Shown here: piece by piece, positions 3,187 to 40,778 of the stretch | Layout: the number at the start of each line of letters is the position of its first letter | Numbering within the stretch: position 1 is the first letter of the stretch | Assembly: GCF_016026235.1 (NCBI RefSeq) | Contig: NZ_CP065613.1 | DNA from: Escherichia coli | GTDB taxonomy: Bacteria > Pseudomonadota > Gammaproteobacteria > Enterobacterales > Enterobacteriaceae | Length of the DNA stretch: 64,000 nucleotides | Reading direction: 5' to 3' (one strand) | Notes under the pieces: model-generated | What the model was told of the DNA's origin: nothing | Database searches by the model: none | What the model saw: the letters and a program-made list of their open reading frames with translations, nothing else | Program-made: the position numbers and the translations under genes

Positions 3187-4080
3187 ATGAAACGCCCGGA
3201 CTACAGAACATTACAGGCACTGGATGCGGTGATACGTGAACGAGGATTTGAGCGCGCGGCACAAAAGCTGTGCATTACACAATCAGCCGTCTCACAGCGC
3301 ATTAAGCAACTGGAAAATATGTTCGGGCAGCCGCTGTTGGTGCGTACCGTACCGCCGCGCCCGACGGAACAAGGGCAAAAACTGCTGGCACTGCTGCGCC
3401 AGGTGGAGTTGCTGGAAGAAGAGTGGCTGGGCGATGAACAAACCGGTTCGACTCCGCTGCTGCTTTCACTGGCGGTCAACGCCGACAGTCTGGCGACGTG
3501 GTTGCTTCCGGCACTGGCTCCTGTGTTGGCTGATTCGCCTATCCGCCTCAACTTGCAGGTAGAAGATGAAACCCGTACTCAGGAACGTCTGCGCCGCGGC
3601 GAAGTGGTCGGCGCGGTGAGTATTCAACATCAGGCGCTGCCGAGTTGCCTTGTCGATAAGCTCGGTGCGCTTGACTATCTGTTCGTCAGCTCAAAACCGT
3701 TTGCCGAAAAATATTTCCCTAACGGCGTAACGCGTTCGGCATTATTGAAAGCACCTGTGGTCGCCTTTGACCATCTTGACGATATGCACCAGGCCTTTTT
3801 GCAGCAAAACTTCGATCTGCCTCCAGGCAGCGTGCCCTGCCATATCGTTAATTCTTCAGAAGCGTTCGTGCAACTTGCTCGCCAGGGCACCACCTGCTGT
3901 ATGATCCCGCACCTGCAAATCGAGAAAGAACTAGCCAGCGGTGAACTGATTGACTTAACGCCAGGGCTATTTCAACGCCGGATGCTCTACTGGCACCGCT
4001 TTGCTCCTGAAAGCCGCATGATGCGTAAAGTCACTGATGCGTTGCTCGATTATGGTCACAAAGTCCTTCGTCAGGATTAA
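3187..4080 (+). CDS. argP: LysR-family transcriptional regulator ArgP (IciA)
   Basis: 297-aa ORF, N-terminal HTH, recognised sequence. Confidence 0.95.
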
Positions 4081-4283
4081 TCCATCAAATAATGCCTGAT
4101 AGCACATATCAGGCGTTATCCTCACTTCTTTTTGTATTCCTTGAATCACATCACAAAATAGACAAATCTCAGGCGGCAAAAAACGACGTCTGAATGCATT
4201 TTTTTTGCTGGCGACAAACCCACGTAAAAAGCTCACCGTAAGCGCAAATACCCTCATTTTGATTGCGTTTTACGGAGCAAATA

Positions 4284-6428
4284 ATGTCTAACGTGCAGGA
4301 GTGGCAACAGCTTGCCAACAAGGAATTGAGCCGTCGGGAGAAAACTGTCGACTCGCTGGTTCAGCAAACCGCGGAAGGGATCACCATCAAGCCGCTGTAT
4401 ACCGAAGCCGATCTCGATAATCTGGAGGTGACAGGTACCCTTCCTGGTTTGCCGCCCTACGTTCGTGGCCCGCGTGCCACTATGTATACCGCCCAACCGT
4501 GGACCATCCGTCAGTATGCTGGTTTTTCAACAGCAAAAGAGTCCAACGCTTTTTATCGCCGTAACCTGGCCGCCGGGCAAAAAGGTCTTTCCGTTGCGTT
4601 TGACCTTGCCACCCACCGAGGCTACGACTCCGATAACCCGCGCGTGGCGGGCGACGTCGGCAAAGCGGGCGTCGCTATCGACACCGTGGAAGATATGAAA
4701 GTCCTGTTCGACCAGATCCCGCTGGATAAAATGTCGGTTTCGATGACCATGAATGGCGCAGTGCTACCAGTACTGGCGTTTTATATCGTCGCCGCAGAAG
4801 AGCAAGGTGTTACACCTGATAAACTGACCGGCACCATTCAGAACGATATCCTCAAAGAGTACCTCTGCCGCAACACCTATATTTACCCGCCAAAACCGTC
4901 AATGCGCATTATCGCCGACATCATCGCCTGGTGTTCCGGCAACATGCCGCGATTTAATACCATCAGTATCAGCGGTTACCACATGGGTGAAGCGGGTGCC
5001 AACTGCGTGCAGCAGGTAGCATTTACGCTCGCTGATGGGATTGAGTACATCAAAGCAGCAATCTCTGCCGGACTGAAAATTGATGACTTCGCTCCTCGCC
5101 TGTCGTTCTTCTTCGGCATCGGCATGGATCTGTTTATGAACGTCGCCATGTTGCGTGCGGCACGTTATTTATGGAGCGAAGCGGTCAGTGGATTTGGCGC
5201 ACAGGACCCGAAATCACTGGCGCTGCGTACCCACTGCCAGACCTCAGGCTGGAGCCTGACTGAACAGGATCCGTATAACAACGTTATCCGCACCACCATT
5301 GAAGCGCTGGCTGCGACGCTGGGCGGTACTCAGTCACTGCATACCAACGCCTTTGACGAAGCGCTTGGTTTGCCTACCGATTTCTCAGCACGCATTGCCC
5401 GCAACACCCAGATCATCATCCAGGAAGAATCAGAACTCTGCCGCACCGTCGATCCACTGGCCGGATCCTATTACATTGAGTCGCTGACCGATCAAATCGT
5501 CAAACAAGCCAGAGCTATTATCCAACAGATCGACGAAGCCGGTGGCATGGCGAAAGCGATCGAAGCAGGTCTGCCAAAACGAATGATCGAAGAGGCCTCA
5601 GCGCGCGAACAGTCGCTGATCGACCAGGGCAAGCGTGTCATCGTTGGTGTCAACAAGTACAAACTGGATCACGAAGACGAAACCGATGTACTTGAGATCG
5701 ACAACGTGATGGTGCGTAACGAGCAAATTGCTTCGCTGGAACGCATTCGCGCCACCCGTGATGATGCCGCCGTAACCGCCGCGTTGAACGCCCTGACTCA
5801 CGCCGCACAGCATAACGAAAACCTGCTGGCTGCCGCTGTTAATGCCGCTCGCGTTCGCGCCACCCTGGGTGAAATTTCCGATGCGCTGGAAGTCGCTTTC
5901 GACCGTTATCTGGTGCCAAGCCAGTGTGTTACCGGCGTGATTGCGCAAAGCTATCATCAGTCTGAGAAATCGGCCTCCGAGTTCGATGCCATTGTTGCGC
6001 AAACGGAGCAGTTCCTTGCCGACAATGGTCGTCGCCCGCGCATTCTGATCGCTAAGATGGGCCAGGATGGACACGATCGCGGCGCGAAAGTGATCGCCAG
6101 CGCCTATTCCGATCTCGGTTTCGACGTAGATTTAAGCCCGATGTTCTCTACACCTGAAGAGATCGCCCGCCTGGCCGTAGAAAACGACGTTCACGTAGTG
6201 GGCGCATCCTCACTGGCTGCCGGTCATAAAACGCTGATCCCGGAACTGGTCGAAGCGCTGAAAAAATGGGGACGCGAAGATATCTGCGTGGTCGCGGGTG
6301 GCGTCATTCCGCCGCAGGATTACGCCTTCCTGCAAGAGCGCGGCGTGGCGGCGATTTATGGTCCAGGTACACCTATGCTCGACAGTGTGCGCGACGTACT
6401 GAATCTGATAAGCCAGCATCATGATTAA
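4284..6428 (+). CDS. scpA: Methylmalonyl-CoA mutase (Sbm/ScpA)
   Basis: ORF trimmed to MSNVQEWQQ...; GGAG RBS at 4274..4277; B12-binding DxHxxG region ([10 protein letters not shown]). Confidence 0.93.
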
Positions 6429-33812: not shown

Positions 33813-36611
33813 TCAGCTGTAGAGCAGTTCGTAGATATAAAAATATTCTGCGTCCGATAAACGGATAGCGTAAGCCTCTTCAATCGGCAAAAAGGAGGAT
33901 TTGATGACGCTAAAGGCACGAGCGTCCAGATCAAGCCGGTTTTCTAGCGCCATCTGTAACGGTTTGCGGTTAATCACGATACGCTCGACCATGCAGCAGC
34001 AGTGGATCAGAAAACGTAGTGTCACCTGGCGGCTCGGTTTCAGGGAGAGCGTGTTGGTTAAGTAGTTCAGAACATCCTCGATCTCTTTCAGAATTCGCTG
34101 CGGGTTGAGCACCGAAATATGGTTGATGATGCTCTCCATGGTCAGCGCGCTGATAAAGCGCATGGCGCTGCGCTCCATCTCCAGTCGGCGCTCGCTGCTT
34201 GAGAGATCCGGCGTCAGCAGGCTGAGCACCAGCTCCGGCCCTTGCTCGGAAAACAGTTCCTCCAGCGAGATAAACGGTATATCCGGCAGTCCCGGCTGGA
34301 AGGTGCCGACGATCCCTGCCAGCCGTTCACTGGCATTAAGCGCCTGCTGAATACGCTCCAGGCTGCGCACCTCGTTATAGTCGAGAATCACCATACGCGT
34401 GTCCTGCGACATCAGCTCGCCAAAGCTCTCCTCCAGCACCTTTTTGATCTTTTCCGCCGTCCCCATTCCGGTTATACATGAGATAACCAGCACTTTGCCA
34501 CCGCTCTCTTGCTGCGGCGTGCAGAGCCGACAAGGGATATTTTTACTCTGCATAAGCACAGCCAATTGCGATAGATCGCCAGTTTCGTAGCTTAAATCCA
34601 GCCCAACCTCCAGCAGGCTGGTCAGAGTGATATTTGGCAACAACAGAACGTCAATCTGGAACAGCTTGCTGATGGTGCTGCCAAAATGGACCAGCGATCC
34701 GATATCCACCATCAGTATCAGCCGCTGCCAGCACCGGTCCTGAATCATCCGGGTCAGGGTTTCCAGGGTGTCATGCACCGACTGCTCAAATGGCATATCA
34801 ATTGCGTAGAACAGATCGCGCTCCAGCACCCGGTTCACATATTGCGCCTGGCTCGTTGCGGTGGTCGCACCGTGAGCGATTAGAATCACGCCGCAATCCG
34901 GGCTGGTGTCGATGCGCTGGCGGTAGTGGCGACACTCTTTCAGGAACAGGCACAGCCAGACCACCTCCGTCGCCGGGCACTGAATATGCAACAACTCATT
35001 GATTTTGCGGCACAGAAGCGTGGCATTGTCATACTCATCTTTACAGCGATCCAGAATCAGGCTGGATGAATAGAGTTGAGGTATAAGCCCTCGCCGCACA
35101 TAGCCAATCAGCGCAAGAAAGTGTTTACGTAACGGGTTCGCCAGGTTTTCTGGCAATGTAAATCCTAATACCTGCTCCACGTAACCGATCAGCAGCGTCA
35201 CACGCTCCTCAATTTGATCGCCATAGCGCGGTGGATGCGCCGCACTATGGCGGCTATAAAGACCATATTCAAAAATCGAACTGAGTTTGTTTTTCAGGAT
35301 AGCCAGCGTTTCTGCGGGCGGCACGTTACTGTTGCGCAGATTGACATATTCACGAGTCAGGAAACTGTAAAACAGGTCGCTCTCTTCTATTTCCGCGCTG
35401 GTCGCCAACGAATTTTTTAACGCGGGCAACGTACGCGCATCCACGTTCAGACGATCTTTACCGCCAAACAACGCATCGACCAGCAGACGCTGCTCTGGCG
35501 TGGTATTAAACGACATCTCCGCCAGTCGTTTATCTAACTCTAGCGTATCATTACGCTCGGTCATTCCCGACGCCCACGCCTGCGCGCACAAGAACTGAAT
35601 ATCACTTTTAAGCTGGCCGATATTGCCTTCCAGGGGTTTACTTAACAACCAATGCAAGAGCGTTTTATCAAGGCTTATGGTACGTTCAATTTTACGACTT
35701 TCACGCTGAAAAAAGCTTACAATCAATTCGAGCTGCTCCTCGACCGAACGCTGGCGAATACCCGGTAAGTCAATACATACCTGGATACGCCGCTGGAAGG
35801 TACGCAATAGTGCCGAGTTGACCGACTCTGTAGTGGCGCAAATAAGGCGCACCGAAATTGAATATGTTGGCCCACTTGAACCAAGTGGGCGGTATTCACC
35901 TTTATCGAGAATAGAAAAGAGCTTCTCTTGTCCTTCGTACGGGAGGCGATGCACTTCATCCAGAAGTAAATAACCTCCGTCAGCTTGCTCCACCAATCCC
36001 GTTTTATTCTCACTTGCCCCGGTAAATGCCCCCTTATGGTGACCAAACAGATGTGAGGAAAGCAACTCCGGATTATGAGCATATTCGGCACAGTTAAAGT
36101 AAACCAACGGAGGTGGCGAACCTATGGTGTGCTTGCAAGCGAAGCAATGCATTAACTCAGCAAAGAATGTTTTGCCAACACCAGATGCACCGGTTAACAG
36201 CACATGTAGTCCGTGGGGATAAAGCACCGCTGCGCGGCCTTTTTCTACCGCATCACGGAGACTACGGTCGTATCCGATAAGTCCGGAAAACGGATCATCA
36301 TCTGTATATTTTTCTTTCTTTGGCAATAAACTAGCCACTGAATGAACTATGCATTCGCAATCATCCAGTTTTCGATTAATGAGCAATTCTAGTGCGTGAC
36401 GATGTAGAAAAAAAACAGGACGTCCCTGACTTTTTACCACCAGGCCTTCATTCCATAATTGATTAAGATCTTTACTAACCGAGTTGCGTGCCAGCCCAAG
36501 GTTAAAACCAATCGCCTCAGCAGTAAATGCTTTCTCCTTCGCTAAATCAGACAGTTCCAGCCCATACGTCAGCCGCTCCAGCTCCTTGTGAATAACATCA
36601 ATCCGTCTCAT
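33813..36611 (-). CDS. Sigma-54-dependent LevR-type transcriptional activator with PRD and PTS-regulatory domains (DgaR-like)
   Basis: ORF trimmed to ATG giving MRRIDVIHK...; AAA+ core with Walker A GASGVGKT and the GAFTGA motif. Confidence 0.85.
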   Translation of the reverse strand: MRRIDVIHKELERLTYGLELSDLAKEKAFTAEAIGFNLGLARNSVSKDLNQLWNEGLVVKSQGRPVFFLHRHALELLINRKLDDCECIVHSVASLLPKKEKYTDDDPFSGLIGYDRSLRDAVEKGRAAVLYPHGLHVLLTGASGVGKTFFAELMHCFACKHTIGSPPPLVYFNCAEYAHNPELLSSHLFGHHKGAFTGASENKTGLVEQADGGYLLLDEVHRLPYEGQEKLFSILDKGEYRPLGSSGPTYSISVRLICATTESVNSALLRTFQRRIQVCIDLPGIRQRSVEEQLELIVSFFQRESRKIERTISLDKTLLHWLLSKPLEGNIGQLKSDIQFLCAQAWASGMTERNDTLELDKRLAEMSFNTTPEQRLLVDALFGGKDRLNVDARTLPALKNSLATSAEIEESDLFYSFLTREYVNLRNSNVPPAETLAILKNKLSSIFEYGLYSRHSAAHPPRYGDQIEERVTLLIGYVEQVLGFTLPENLANPLRKHFLALIGYVRRGLIPQLYSSSLILDRCKDEYDNATLLCRKINELLHIQCPATEVVWLCLFLKECRHYRQRIDTSPDCGVILIAHGATTATSQAQYVNRVLERDLFYAIDMPFEQSVHDTLETLTRMIQDRCWQRLILMVDIGSLVHFGSTISKLFQIDVLLLPNITLTSLLEVGLDLSYETGDLSQLAVLMQSKNIPCRLCTPQQESGGKVLVISCITGMGTAEKIKKVLEESFGELMSQDTRMVILDYNEVRSLERIQQALNASERLAGIVGTFQPGLPDIPFISLEELFSEQGPELVLSLLTPDLSSSERRLEMERSAMRFISALTMESIINHISVLNPQRILKEIEDVLNYLTNTLSLKPSRQVTLRFLIHCCCMVERIVINRKPLQMALENRLDLDARAFSVIKSSFLPIEEAYAIRLSDAEYFYIYELLYS

Positions 36612-36869
36612 TTCTTTACCGCTTAAAAAACAATAGTTGTTCAGAACATACACTATTTGTAAACGTAAGAATGAGAACTATCGGGAAGAATTAATGTTCC
36701 TTGTGGCAATCTGGTTTCTGAATATTCGTGTTTTAAATATTACTTATGGTCTGAAACAACCAGGCAGGTGAACAGAGCTAAGAAAAAGTAGCGTAGAAAT
36801 ATAAAAACATATATCGCACTGATGAATGTTTCCCGGCATGACTATGCACACCGGGAAATATTTAGTAAA

Positions 36870-37790
36870 TTACTCGCCCTTTTTCGCCGCCTGAATATAC
36901 AGCATCTCCAGCGCCAGCGTCGCCGCAGCCAGAGCGGTGATTTCCGACTGATCATATGCCGGAGCCACTTCCACTACGTCCATCCCAACGATGTTGAGAT
37001 CTTTCAGGCCGCGTACCAGTTTAATAGCGCGATCGGAGGTCAGGCCGCCAATCACTGGCGTACCGGTGCCTGGTGCAAAAGCAGGATCCAGGCAGTCGAT
37101 ATCAAAGGTCAGGTAAACCGGCATATCACCCACAATCTGTTTCACCTGGGCGATAACGTCATCCACGCTGCGATCGTTCACCTGGCAGGCGTCCAGTACG
37201 GTAAAGCCGTTGTCTTTATCAAACTCGGTACGAATACCAATCTGCACGGAATGATTCGGGTCGATCAGACCTTCTTTCGGCGCGGTATAGAACATGGTGC
37301 CGTGGTCAAATTCACAACCGTTCGCGTAGGTATCGGTGTGGGCGTCGAAGTGTACCAGCGCCATTTTGCCGAAATGCTTAGCATGAGCACGCAGCAGCGG
37401 CAGCGTAACAAAGTGGTCACCACCGAAAGAGAGCATACGCTTACCGGCAGCCAGCAACTTCTCGGCGTGTGCCTGCAGTTTTTCGCTCATCTCACGGGCA
37501 TCGCCGAAGGCATATACCAGATCACCGCAGTCCACGACGTTCAGGCGCTCACGCATGTCGAAATTCCACGGGAAGCGGTTGTGTTCCCAGGCCAGATTCG
37601 TCGAAACCTGACGGATCGCTGCCGGACCGTGACGACCACCGGCACGGCCAGAGGTGGCCATGTCGAACGGCACGCCGGTGATCACCCAGTCGGCATCGCT
37701 GTCATACGGCTGGAAGTTCATCGGCAGGCGTAAAAAACCAAAGGCGTTGGAAACCAGTGAGTTATCGTATTGATGACCTAAGGTGCTCAT
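36870..37790 (-). CDS. speB: Agmatinase
   Basis: ORF trimmed to [13 protein letters not shown]...; 306 aa. Confidence 0.95.
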
Positions 37791-37924
37791 GGATGGACTC
37801 CTATTACAAAGTCGATATAAAAAACCCTTCCGCGTCGTTAGGCCCGACGAGGAAGGGTTGGATTTGCGAAACACAAGTTTGTGCTAATTATCGCCTTAAA
37901 TGGGCGAGGCATCAAGCGAGGTTG

Positions 37925-38656
37925 CTATTTCCGACACGGTGGCGGCGCATAGCCATTGTTATCTGCCGGAAAGGCTTGTCCAGAGCACGGCGGCAGCGCG
38001 TTTTGCGCTGGGCCTTGTAATTCAAAGGCGGCAAAGCCGATTACCCCGGTATTACGCACATCGCCTTGCGCCGAATTGGCTGCGTAGGAATCAGCAACGT
38101 TGGCGAACTGAAAAGCCGCTTCGGTATGTTTATCTTTGCGGAATCCTTTAATCGCTAACGAATCTCCGGCATTCACAATATAGCCGTTGTTATTCAGCGA
38201 ACCTTGCTTGCCGTTCAGCACATCCATGCCATCAACCGTAGCAACGATCTCGTAGTTGGTGTTACGACTGTAATTACGGACATATAATTGATAATTCATT
38301 CCGACTCTGGCATGGACAATATAGCGTGGTTCATTATTGGATGAATCATAAACACGCGTAATAGGTAGAGAATTAAAATTACCATCGCGAATAGCATATT
38401 CCAGTTCGTTAATACGAATGCTATAAACGCGGTCATAGCCGGAAGGAACATTAGTCGAATAACTAATAACGATCATCTCTGCAGGATCGCGCCAGGCTCG
38501 TTCAGCAGATACGCCCTGGACCGATGAGTGCACATCCCCACCCCAGGCGGTGCCGACATTGCCCGATGCACTGCTATTATACTGCGCATTACTGGAACAA
38601 CCGGCCAGCAGCACGATTAATGCCACCAACGCGCTACGTACTTTCCATTTTTTCAT
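37925..38656 (-). CDS. Hypothetical lipoprotein (243 aa), no family recognised
   Basis: Signal peptide with lipobox LLAGC (MKKWKVRSALVALIVLLAGCSS); lies between speA and speB. Confidence 0.6.
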   Translation of the reverse strand: MKKWKVRSALVALIVLLAGCSSNAQYNSSASGNVGTAWGGDVHSSVQGVSAERAWRDPAEMIVISYSTNVPSGYDRVYSIRINELEYAIRDGNFNSLPITRVYDSSNNEPRYIVHARVGMNYQLYVRNYSRNTNYEIVATVDGMDVLNGKQGSLNNNGYIVNAGDSLAIKGFRKDKHTEAAFQFANVADSYAANSAQGDVRNTGVIGFAAFELQGPAQNALPPCSGQAFPADNNGYAPPPCRK

Positions 38657-38739
38657 AACCGTTCCCTCTGCATTTAATTAATGCAGCGATTGTAGGGAGA
38701 TTATTTAATAAGAAAAGCAGCCAGATTATTTTTAAGAAT

Positions 38740-38785
38740 ATATAAAAAGAAAGCGGGCCGATTTACGTAAATAAATCGACCCGCC
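38740..38785 (-). terminator. Intrinsic terminator downstream of speA
   Basis: 13-bp stem hairpin (GCGGGCCGATTTA / TAAATCGACCCGC) followed by a T-rich tract on the minus strand. Confidence 0.55.
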
Positions 38786-38801
38786 AGCGGAATAATCTTA
38801 A

Positions 38802-40778
38802 TTATTCATCTTCAAGATAAGTATAACCGTACAAACCTGCCTCGAACTCTTCAAGGAACTGTTGTTGCAGTTCAGCATCAAGATCGGTTTTCTTCACTTG
38901 ATCGCGGAACTGGGTTAACAGCGTTTTCGGATCGAGCTGTACATATTGCAGCATGTCCGCCACGGTATCGCCTTCGTCAGACAGTTCTACTTCTACGCTA
39001 CCGTCAGGGAACACGAACACGTCAACCGCTTCGGTATCACCGAACAGGTTGTGCATATTGCCAAGGATCTCCTGATATGCGCCGACCATAAAGAAACCGA
39101 GCATCGGCGGATTCTCTGGATCGTACTCCGGCATTGGCATTGTCGTGGCAATACCATCACCATCAATATAGTGGTCGATAGCACCGTCAGAGTCACAGGT
39201 AATATCCAGCAGCACAGCGCGGCGTTCCGGCACTTGATCCAGCCCTTCCAGCGGCAGAACCGGGAACAACTGGTCGATCCCCCACGCATCCGGCATCGAC
39301 TGGAACAGCGAGAAGTTGACGTACATTTTGTCTGCCATACGTTCCTGCAGCTCGTCGATAATCGGACGATGAGCACGGTTTTGCGGATCCAGTTGCTTCT
39401 GCACTTCATGGCACATGCTCAGATAGAGTTGTTCTGCCCATGCACGTTCTTGCAGGCTAAAGGTGCCGGAAGAGTAGCCGATATGAATGTCGTGCAGATC
39501 CATCTGGCTGTCGTGTAACCATTCACGCAAAGAACGGCGAGTTCCCGGTTCGTGCATCTCCTGCCAGGTTTCCCACATGCTTTGCAGCGCGCGCGGCGCA
39601 TCTTCTGCGGGCGCGGTCGGCACCGTATATTCGTTACGTTCCACGCCGATGATATTCGATACCAGCACGGTGTGATGCGCAGTTACCGCACGACCCGATT
39701 CGGTGATTACCGTCGGATGCGGCAGACCATTTTCTTCACACGCATCACCAATCGCCCAGATGATGTTGTTGGCGTATTCATTGAGGCCATAGTTTACGGA
39801 GCAGTCAGACTGCGAACGGGTGCCTTCATAGTCCACGCCCAGACCGCCGCCGACGTCGAAGCACTGAATATTGACGCCCAGCTTGTGCAGTTCCACATAG
39901 AAACGCGCGGATTCACGAACGCCTGTCGCGATATCGCGAATATTCGCCATCTGCGAACCGAGGTGGAAGTGCAGTAGTTGCAGGCTGTCGAGACGCCCGG
40001 CTTCACGCAGGGTTTCAACCAGTTGCAGTACCTGAGTCGCAGCCAGGCCGAACTTCGATTTTTCCCCGCCGGAGGACTGCCATTTACCCGAGCCCTGCGA
40101 GGCCAGACGTGCACGCACGCCCAGACGAGGAACGACATTCAGACGTTCTGCTTCATCCAGCACAATGGCGATTTCTGACATCTTCTCAATGACCAGATAG
40201 ACCTTGTGCCCCATCTTCTCGCCAATTAATGCCAGGCGGATATATTCGCGGTCTTTATAACCGTTGCAGACGATGACGCTACGGGTCATGCCAGCATGTG
40301 CCAGCACCGCCATCAACTCTGCTTTGGAACCGGCTTCCAGACCCAGCGGTTCGCCCGAATGAATCAGGGACTCGATCACGCGGCGGTGCTGGTTAACTTT
40401 GATCGGATAAACAAGGAAGTAATCGCCGTTATAGCCGTAGGATTCCCTCGCACGTTTGAACGCGGCGTTAATGGAACGCAAACGGTGCTGCAGGATCTGT
40501 GGGAAACAGAACAGTGCAGGCAGACGCTGACCCTGTGCTTCACGAGTTTTCACTAACTGCGCGAGATCGACGCGAGCTTCCGGGACGTCCGGGTCTGGGC
40601 ACACGCTGATGTGGCCCAGCTCGTTAACGTCATAGTAGTTATTGCCCCACCAGGCAATATTGTAAGTACGCAGCATCTTGCTGGCTTCCTGGGAGCTCAT
40701 TGCAACCTCCTGCATGGAGCGTAGTACACCGTGTTCGCCCGCTGACGAAGGCAAACCCATAGACATGTCGTCAGACAT
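38802..40778 (-). CDS. speA: Biosynthetic arginine decarboxylase
   Basis: ORF trimmed to [17 protein letters not shown]...; 658 aa. Confidence 0.97.

Follow-up and report, generated by a model that had tools for sequence, protein, structure and literature searches.

The genes for biosynthetic arginine decarboxylase (speA) and agmatinase (speB) are separated by 137 bp in a K-12-type genome of Escherichia coli, the same gap being given for MG1655 (PMC8674398). In the E. coli genome analysed here (assembly GCF_016026235.1, contig NZ_CP065613.1), the gap between the speA stop (38802) and the speB ATG (37790) measures 1,011 nt. We refer to the whole stretch of DNA that was analysed, 64,000 nucleotides in length, as the window. 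An earlier note on this DNA had proposed that a lipoprotein gene of no recognised family was inserted between speA and speB, and that two terminator-like hairpins bracketing it would uncouple speB from the speA promoter. The locus raises the questions of how the three genes are transcribed, what the lipoprotein may do, and whether the long gap or the K-12 gap is the derived state.

Layout of the interval and its transcription signals

The three genes, and the segment in which the window and K-12 differ, are the following:

38802..40778, minus strand: speA, biosynthetic arginine decarboxylase, 658 aa (ORF; RefSeq annotation in a 99.9% identical genome)
37925..38656, minus strand: lipoprotein gene, 243 aa (ORF; lipobox; dN/dS; AlphaFold2 model)
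36870..37790, minus strand: speB, agmatinase, 306 aa (ORF; RefSeq annotation in a 99.9% identical genome)
37867..38801, no strand: segment replaced in the K-12-type allele, 935 nt against 60 nt (BLASTN of the K-12-type intergenic region against the window)

The ORF with a lipoprotein signal that the earlier note had seen in a gap of about 1 kb is confirmed, and the K-12-type genome has the short gap stated in that note and lacks the gene. Homology to K-12 spans 37650..37866 and then picks up at 38802, the 935 nt between being swapped for 60 nt (BLASTN). We found that this short allele has neither the lipoprotein gene with its candidate promoter nor the terminator of speA; its 60 nt still hold a putative speB promoter. 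SpeA shows 95-99.7% amino-acid identity to the speA matches at the other loci compared, and in the literature c3522 of CFT073 is SpeB.

The far side of speB offers a separate observation. The 946-aa ORF directly 3′ of it (window 33813..36653) is DagR by the annotation of the 99.9%-identical genome, and mannose-family PTS IIA/IIB/IIC/IID genes lie beyond it at lower coordinates. The K-12-type genome has loiP next after speB, a second K-12 difference at the spe locus.

Between speA and the lipoprotein gene lies the first of the two hairpins:

38742..38785, minus strand: putative intrinsic terminator of speA (T1), 15-bp stem at 38752..38785 plus T tract (terminator scan, folding, covariation)

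The T1 stem closes a 4-nt loop and the hairpin folds with -23.4 kcal/mol (z = -4.4 against shuffles). The consensus structure from nine taxa contains 14 pairs, and compensatory double changes occur at 8 of these. Judging from this fold and covariation, T1 appears to be a genuine terminator of speA, and speA transcription would end at 38752..38785. The hairpin is missing from the K-12 short allele, in which K-12-type homology resumes only at 38802, and since that allele is without T1, read-through from speA into the speB leader would be possible only there. speA and speB are thus predicted to be more strongly uncoupled here than in K-12.

The spacer between T1 and the lipoprotein ATG is AT-rich (35% GC), and two elements stand out in it:

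38689..38694, minus strand: candidate -10 element TACAAT of the lipoprotein gene's own promoter (TAnnnT kept in 9 of 9 aligned taxa)
38664..38686, minus strand: palindrome CTGCATTAATTAAATGCAG (38668..38686) overlapping the Shine-Dalgarno sequence GAGGG (38664..38668) (read from the sequence)

The spacer is divergent among the aligned taxa apart from TAnnnT. The -35 is poor and a simple promoter scan made no call for a lipoprotein promoter; nevertheless, the gene probably has a promoter of its own that is weak or regulated. Its ribosome-binding site is good, the GAGGG lying 7 nt 5′ of the ATG. The palindrome, which has one central mismatch, is found in the E. coli and E. whittamii rows only and not in the other genera aligned; it may serve as an operator or form a hairpin in the 5′ UTR.

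Two further elements precede speB:

37887..37915, minus strand: putative speB promoter, -35 TTGATG (37910..37915), 17-nt spacer, -10 GATAAT (37887..37892) (promoter scans, conservation)
37817..37859, minus strand: putative speB leader hairpin (37823..37859) plus U tract (folding; identical in the K-12-type locus)

The sigma-70-like promoter lies directly 3′ of the lipoprotein stop codon. In nine taxa including K-12, GATAAT, the spacing and C-T-x-G of the -35 are invariant and the rest of the -35 is similar; K-12 has TTGAAT-17-GATAAT, with the same spacing as the TTGATG-17-GATAAT found here. This conservation suggests that speB has its own sigma-70 promoter in both alleles.

The hairpin at 37823..37859 folds with -25.1 kcal/mol (z = -4.8 against shuffles), is followed by U6 and, with this tract, lies about 25 nt 5′ of the speB ATG, within a leader of roughly 90 nt. 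Hairpin, U tract and ribosome-binding site are identical in the K-12 speA-speB region. The hairpin is nearly invariant in Escherichia, Klebsiella, Citrobacter, Kluyvera and Entomohabitans while the surrounding spacer diverges, with one compensatory change (C-G to U-A) in K. spallanzanii, and it is different or absent in Intestinirhabdus, Phytobacter and Kosakonia. An Rfam search of the whole intergenic region, this hairpin included, gave no family match. On the evidence of its position and conservation, the hairpin is most readily taken as an element of the speB leader. The candidate role of a private terminator of the lipoprotein gene was rejected as its sole role, the hairpin lying 3′ of the conserved speB promoter and being present in K-12.

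Two observations bear on the leader. The arrangement is attenuator-like, with the promoter (37887..37915) followed by hairpin and U tract (37817..37859) and then by the speB ribosome-binding site, and the hairpin sequence is almost fixed over five genera whereas the speA terminator covaries freely. The speB leader could be a regulatory leader, for which induction of speB by agmatine would be a possible lead.

Both bracketing hairpins of the earlier note thus fold well, and its proposal that they uncouple speB from the speA promoter holds for the first, a putative terminator that K-12 lacks, and not for the second, which belongs with speB and is shared with K-12. With a terminator after speA and a promoter before speB, the lipoprotein gene does not, at the level of the sequence, look like a member of a speAB operon. 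The ancestral locus of the Enterobacteriaceae would instead consist of three transcription units, namely speA, the lipoprotein gene, and speB, the last being transcribed from the promoter right after the lipoprotein stop through the structured leader hairpin into speB.

The lipoprotein and the roles it may play

The N-terminus of the 243-aa ORF (MKKWKVRSALVALIVLLAGCSS) consists of a positive N-region (K2, K3, K5, R7), then a hydrophobic core, and then a lipobox L-A-G-C with Cys20. The stretch MKKWKVRSALVALIVLLAG together with the C directly after it ends in LAGC and so agrees with the lipobox pattern [LVI][ASTVI][GAS]C, and of 63 homologues in the alignment at least 90% keep Cys20. Under the Lol sorting rule of E. 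coli, Asp at position +2 after the lipidated Cys is the signal for inner-membrane retention. Here residues +2 and +3 are Ser-Ser, and Asp at +2 is absent. By the general rules for lipoproteins, the prolipoprotein would be lipidated on Cys20 by Lgt/LspA/Lnt, with cleavage by signal peptidase II, and, given Ser at +2, the Lol system would bring it to the outer membrane and place it in the inner leaflet, its all-beta domain of roughly 190 residues facing the periplasm. The predicted mature form has 224 aa, about 24 kDa and a pI of 5.9. A common L-A-G-C lipobox and a non-Asp +2 residue are features of Lol-sorted outer-membrane lipoproteins of Enterobacteriaceae, and UniProt auto-names homologues 'outer membrane lipoprotein'; with the characterised lipoproteins the 243-aa protein has no sequence family in common.

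At least 1,000 contigs encode exactly this 243-aa sequence. RefSeq lists it in the 99.9%-identical genome as WP_000758905.1, hypothetical protein, and its labels for the gene vary between hypothetical protein, membrane protein and lipoprotein. The searchable literature holds no experimental evidence on expression, lipidation or localisation, and no paper on the gene was found there.

Using the Nei-Gojobori method, we found a dN/dS of 0.073 in the comparison with E. whittamii, in which dS is unsaturated at 0.31, and of 0.07-0.16 against the orthologues of Salmonella, Klebsiella, Citrobacter and Kluyvera, compared with 0.009-0.034 for speA and 0-0.05 for speB in the same comparison. The lipoprotein gene is under purifying selection, its protein changing roughly ten times faster than SpeA and SpeB, and the ratio of 0.07-0.16 indicates that it is not a chance ORF. 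The orthologous ORFs are mostly full-length (241-244 aa). With purifying selection and a frame kept across species, the gene has the marks of a functional coding gene, and the conservation of the ORF, on which the earlier note had made its reading depend, is established.

Shortened versions of 174-181 aa also recur (P0025, A0A090NIM7, A0A0A6ZYV3), one cluster comprising 448 member sequences, and Shigella dysenteriae entries are truncated as well. These truncated forms suggest pseudogenisation in some lineages.

Searches of the family databases agree with the earlier note in recognising no family. Pfam has no match for the 243-aa protein even at E≤10, and when 63 members of the family were searched, none of them had a match at E≤0.001. 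NCBIfam gives nothing significant, the weak ActS and LptM hits being confined to the signal peptide and far below cut-off; PADLOC gives no match; PHROGs gives nothing significant (best E 0.019, N-terminal); and a profile search gives no sequence relative in the PDB. An exhaustive search puts the size of the family at 2,897 representatives at 50% identity with E≤1e-3, and 847 with E≤1e-10. Where an organism is named, the member usually comes from the Alpha-, Beta- or Gammaproteobacteria and in a few cases from the Myxococcota. Homologues are common in bacteria of soil and water, among them Variovorax, Paracoccus and Acidovorax.

The family shares the motifs LGTxWGE, YEIVATVDG(L/M)DVLxGxPGS, GFRKS...VAAFRFS, DSYAA and NxGVIG, and a C-terminal FPAD...YAPPP tail. 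The conserved positions are mostly glycines and aromatics, together with a small charged cluster (R53, E136, D142, D145, R173). The long homologues offer no informative domain fusion, containing only disordered linkers, one tandem duplication and a circular permutation. The duplication is that of P0199 (465 aa), which has two copies, and in P0199 and P0219 the LGTxWGE segment stands after the core domain, not before it, a placement that indicates circular permutation or two separable sub-domains.

AlphaFold2 with the family alignment gave a confident all-beta model (pLDDT 90, pTM 0.78) of about 13 strands within residues 34-213. The fold search yielded no close match: a Foldseek search of the PDB with this model found nothing at E≤0.001, and the AFDB50 matches are uncharacterised lipoproteins only. 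Scores to Ig-like and MATH-like beta-sandwich domains reflect generic sandwich topology and leave about half of the lipoprotein domain unaligned. As there is neither a catalytic signature nor a related fold, we assign to the protein, by default, a binding or scaffolding function in the envelope and not that of an enzyme. One third of sequenced E. coli are without the gene, which makes it apparently dispensable.

Whether the position next to speA tells of a role in polyamine metabolism is a natural question. The lipoprotein could have agmatine or putrescine as its ligand, or could work together with SpeA at the envelope, its position being kept for that purpose. The adjacency to speA is indeed kept across Enterobacteriaceae genera with saturated synonymous sites, even in Salmonella where speB has moved, and the acidic residues E136, D142 and D145 are invariant or near-invariant and could bind cations. 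SpeA itself, as Buch and Boyle reportedly described in 1985, is said to be processed and envelope-associated in E. coli. This adjacency, however, does not extend beyond the Enterobacteriaceae. Among the loci examined, no homologue outside Enterobacteriaceae (33-44% identity) stands next to speA or speB, and their neighbours are unrelated: the Providencia homologue adjoins metJ, that of a Pseudomonas phnE and a LivJ-like gene, and that of Trabulsiella the YnfC lipoprotein gene. In Acinetobacter (L048, L057 and L069, about 3840-5700), two tandem lipoprotein paralogues lie 3′ of the undecaprenyl-diphosphate phosphatase gene (uppP), and in Variovorax (L007:6001-7216) a 38%-identical homologue stands together with a family-less 124-aa ORF between hisD and hisC in the his operon. 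Among 42 loci of distant homologues, we found no neighbourhood conserved across genera. The linkage to spe genes is confined to Enterobacteriaceae, and the context gives no functional lead. A strong predicted terminator moreover separates the gene from speA and a predicted promoter separates it from speB, and the third of E. coli without the gene, prototrophic K-12 included, has a working SpeA/SpeB pathway. We therefore regard a polyamine role as unlikely.

The lipoprotein could also be a host-interaction or defence factor, for instance one displayed on the cell surface or one that inhibits, in the periplasm, an enzyme of a host or competitor. Its loss would then be tolerable in laboratory and commensal lineages. 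A small, beta-rich and fast-evolving lipoprotein encoded by a standalone gene would suit such a role, and so would its distribution, with presence in O157:H7, O111, ST131 and O18:H1, absence from K-12 and BL21, and truncation in the Shigella dysenteriae entries. MliC and PliG are lysozyme inhibitors. The MliC/PliC, PliG and Ivy inhibitors are also small, standalone, beta-rich envelope proteins, a likeness of general type only. The protein, however, has no sequence or fold similarity to known inhibitor families, the abundance of homologues in soil and water bacteria argues that the family is not host-specific, and, taken over the whole gene, dN/dS lies so far below 1 that no arms race is indicated. 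We consider this explanation, too, improbable, and retain the default of an envelope binding or scaffolding protein.

Descent of the long and short alleles

We found the order speA-lipoprotein-speB in E. whittamii, E. albertii, the cryptic Escherichia clades, Klebsiella, Citrobacter and Kluyvera, and also in Intestinirhabdus, Phytobacter, Kosakonia and Entomohabitans. In Salmonella the lipoprotein gene still lies 3′ of speA and is followed by a GntR/dehydrogenase block instead of speB. The identity of the lipoprotein drops with taxonomic distance, from 95% in E. whittamii to 74% in Salmonella and 57-75% in other genera. These same-site orthologues across Enterobacteriaceae genera argue that the K-12 state is the derived one; most parsimoniously, the lipoprotein gene would be ancestral in Enterobacteriaceae and K-12 would have lost it.

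One homologue-bearing locus falls outside this pattern of context. An assembly labelled Chryseobacterium sp. 18061, and thus as Bacteroidota (L017, 4971-5732), carries a 63%-identical homologue with speA and speB absent nearby and neighbours that are mostly unannotatable; this copy is possibly contamination or a transfer.

Within E. coli, a megablast search with the 1.2-kb region found the long allele in 3,550 of 5,426 complete genomes (65%), the remaining genomes matching the flanks only. A reciprocal search with the K-12-type junction found the short allele in 1,867 genomes (K-12 and 1,866 others), almost all of them 100% identical over 177 nt. Among the genomes with the long allele are O157:H7, O111:NM, ST131, O18:H1 and IHE3034, and among those with the short allele are K-12 and BL21; at megablast level the short-allele genomes hold no second copy of the lipoprotein gene elsewhere. 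In one complete genome, NZ_AP045810.1, the region is divided between two places. The K-12 state would, most parsimoniously, be a single derived allele that is a minority in E. coli.

The origin of the short allele itself is less simple than a deletion. Its 60 nt (L001:1669-1728) align just after the lipoprotein stop (window 37867..37930) with 56% identity, which is the intergenus level (other genera 51-65%), whereas the flanking speA and speB differ by 2.6-3.0% between K-12-type and long-allele genomes. With the retained 60 nt only 56% identical and flanks about 3% different, the short allele is no simple recent deletion of the present long allele, and a clean deletion of that kind in K-12 was rejected. 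The allele may have arisen long ago, or K-12-type strains may have acquired it from a lineage outside the sample.

The proposal of the earlier note runs in the opposite direction: the gene would have been horizontally inserted in this strain or lineage, breaking up the speAB operon of the ancestor and bringing both hairpins along. K-12 is without the gene, as this would predict, and the composition departs from that of the neighbours, the lipoprotein gene having 48.6% GC and 46.7% GC3 compared with 54-56% and 61-64% for speA and speB (window mean GC 51.7%); its roughly tenfold faster non-synonymous evolution points the same way. The lower GC, however, fits low expression and carries no strong foreign signature. 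At least eight genera have the gene at the same site, as does every other Escherichia species that was sampled, and its divergence tracks taxonomy; in E. coli the long allele is the majority while the short allele is one near-invariant sequence. The ORF list and BLASTN gave no integrase or transposase in the 935-nt segment, in which the lipoprotein gene is the sole gene, so that site, gene content and GC do not describe a mobile island. The second hairpin and the speB promoter, finally, are also in K-12. Taken together, these results leave an insertion very unlikely. The earlier note had held that finding the gene at this place in both K-12 and typical E. coli would count against its reading; the gene is there in typical E. 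coli and absent from K-12.

Least credible of all is a decaying or non-functional ORF persisting in many genomes, for although the gene is dispensable in one third of E. coli, low in codon bias and without annotation or literature, its dN/dS stays at 0.07-0.16 over long divergence, most of the orthologues listed are full-length, strongly conserved motifs mark a very large family, and the AlphaFold model is confident.

Consequences for polyamine operon models and for the family

We consider it likely that the overall picture is one of an ancestral three-unit locus, a binding lipoprotein anchored in the outer membrane, and a derived K-12 allele; our confidence is firm on the genomics and evolution and low on the role of the protein. 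That the protein is the founding member of a large, mainly proteobacterial envelope lipoprotein family with an unsolved beta fold, its position after speA marking an envelope role in agmatine or putrescine handling, seems to us unlikely. Were such a polyamine-handling role true, K-12-type strains would have rewired the expression of speA and speB on losing the gene and the speA terminator.

The gene is already known as a sequence feature and as a pan-genome polymorphism, and for a specialist in E. coli pan-genomics there is nothing surprising in it; the protein family is uncharacterised and uncurated. What is gained is a correction of the direction in which the event ran, a transcription model with three units, and the observation on the speB leader. 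A very large family that has no Pfam entry, structure or literature is a worthwhile subject for family curation and for a knockout.

For E. coli itself, these results correct a view centred on K-12. The textbook speA-speB pair with its 137-bp gap appears as a derived minority allele, which is relevant when models of the K-12 polyamine operon are carried over to pathogenic strains.
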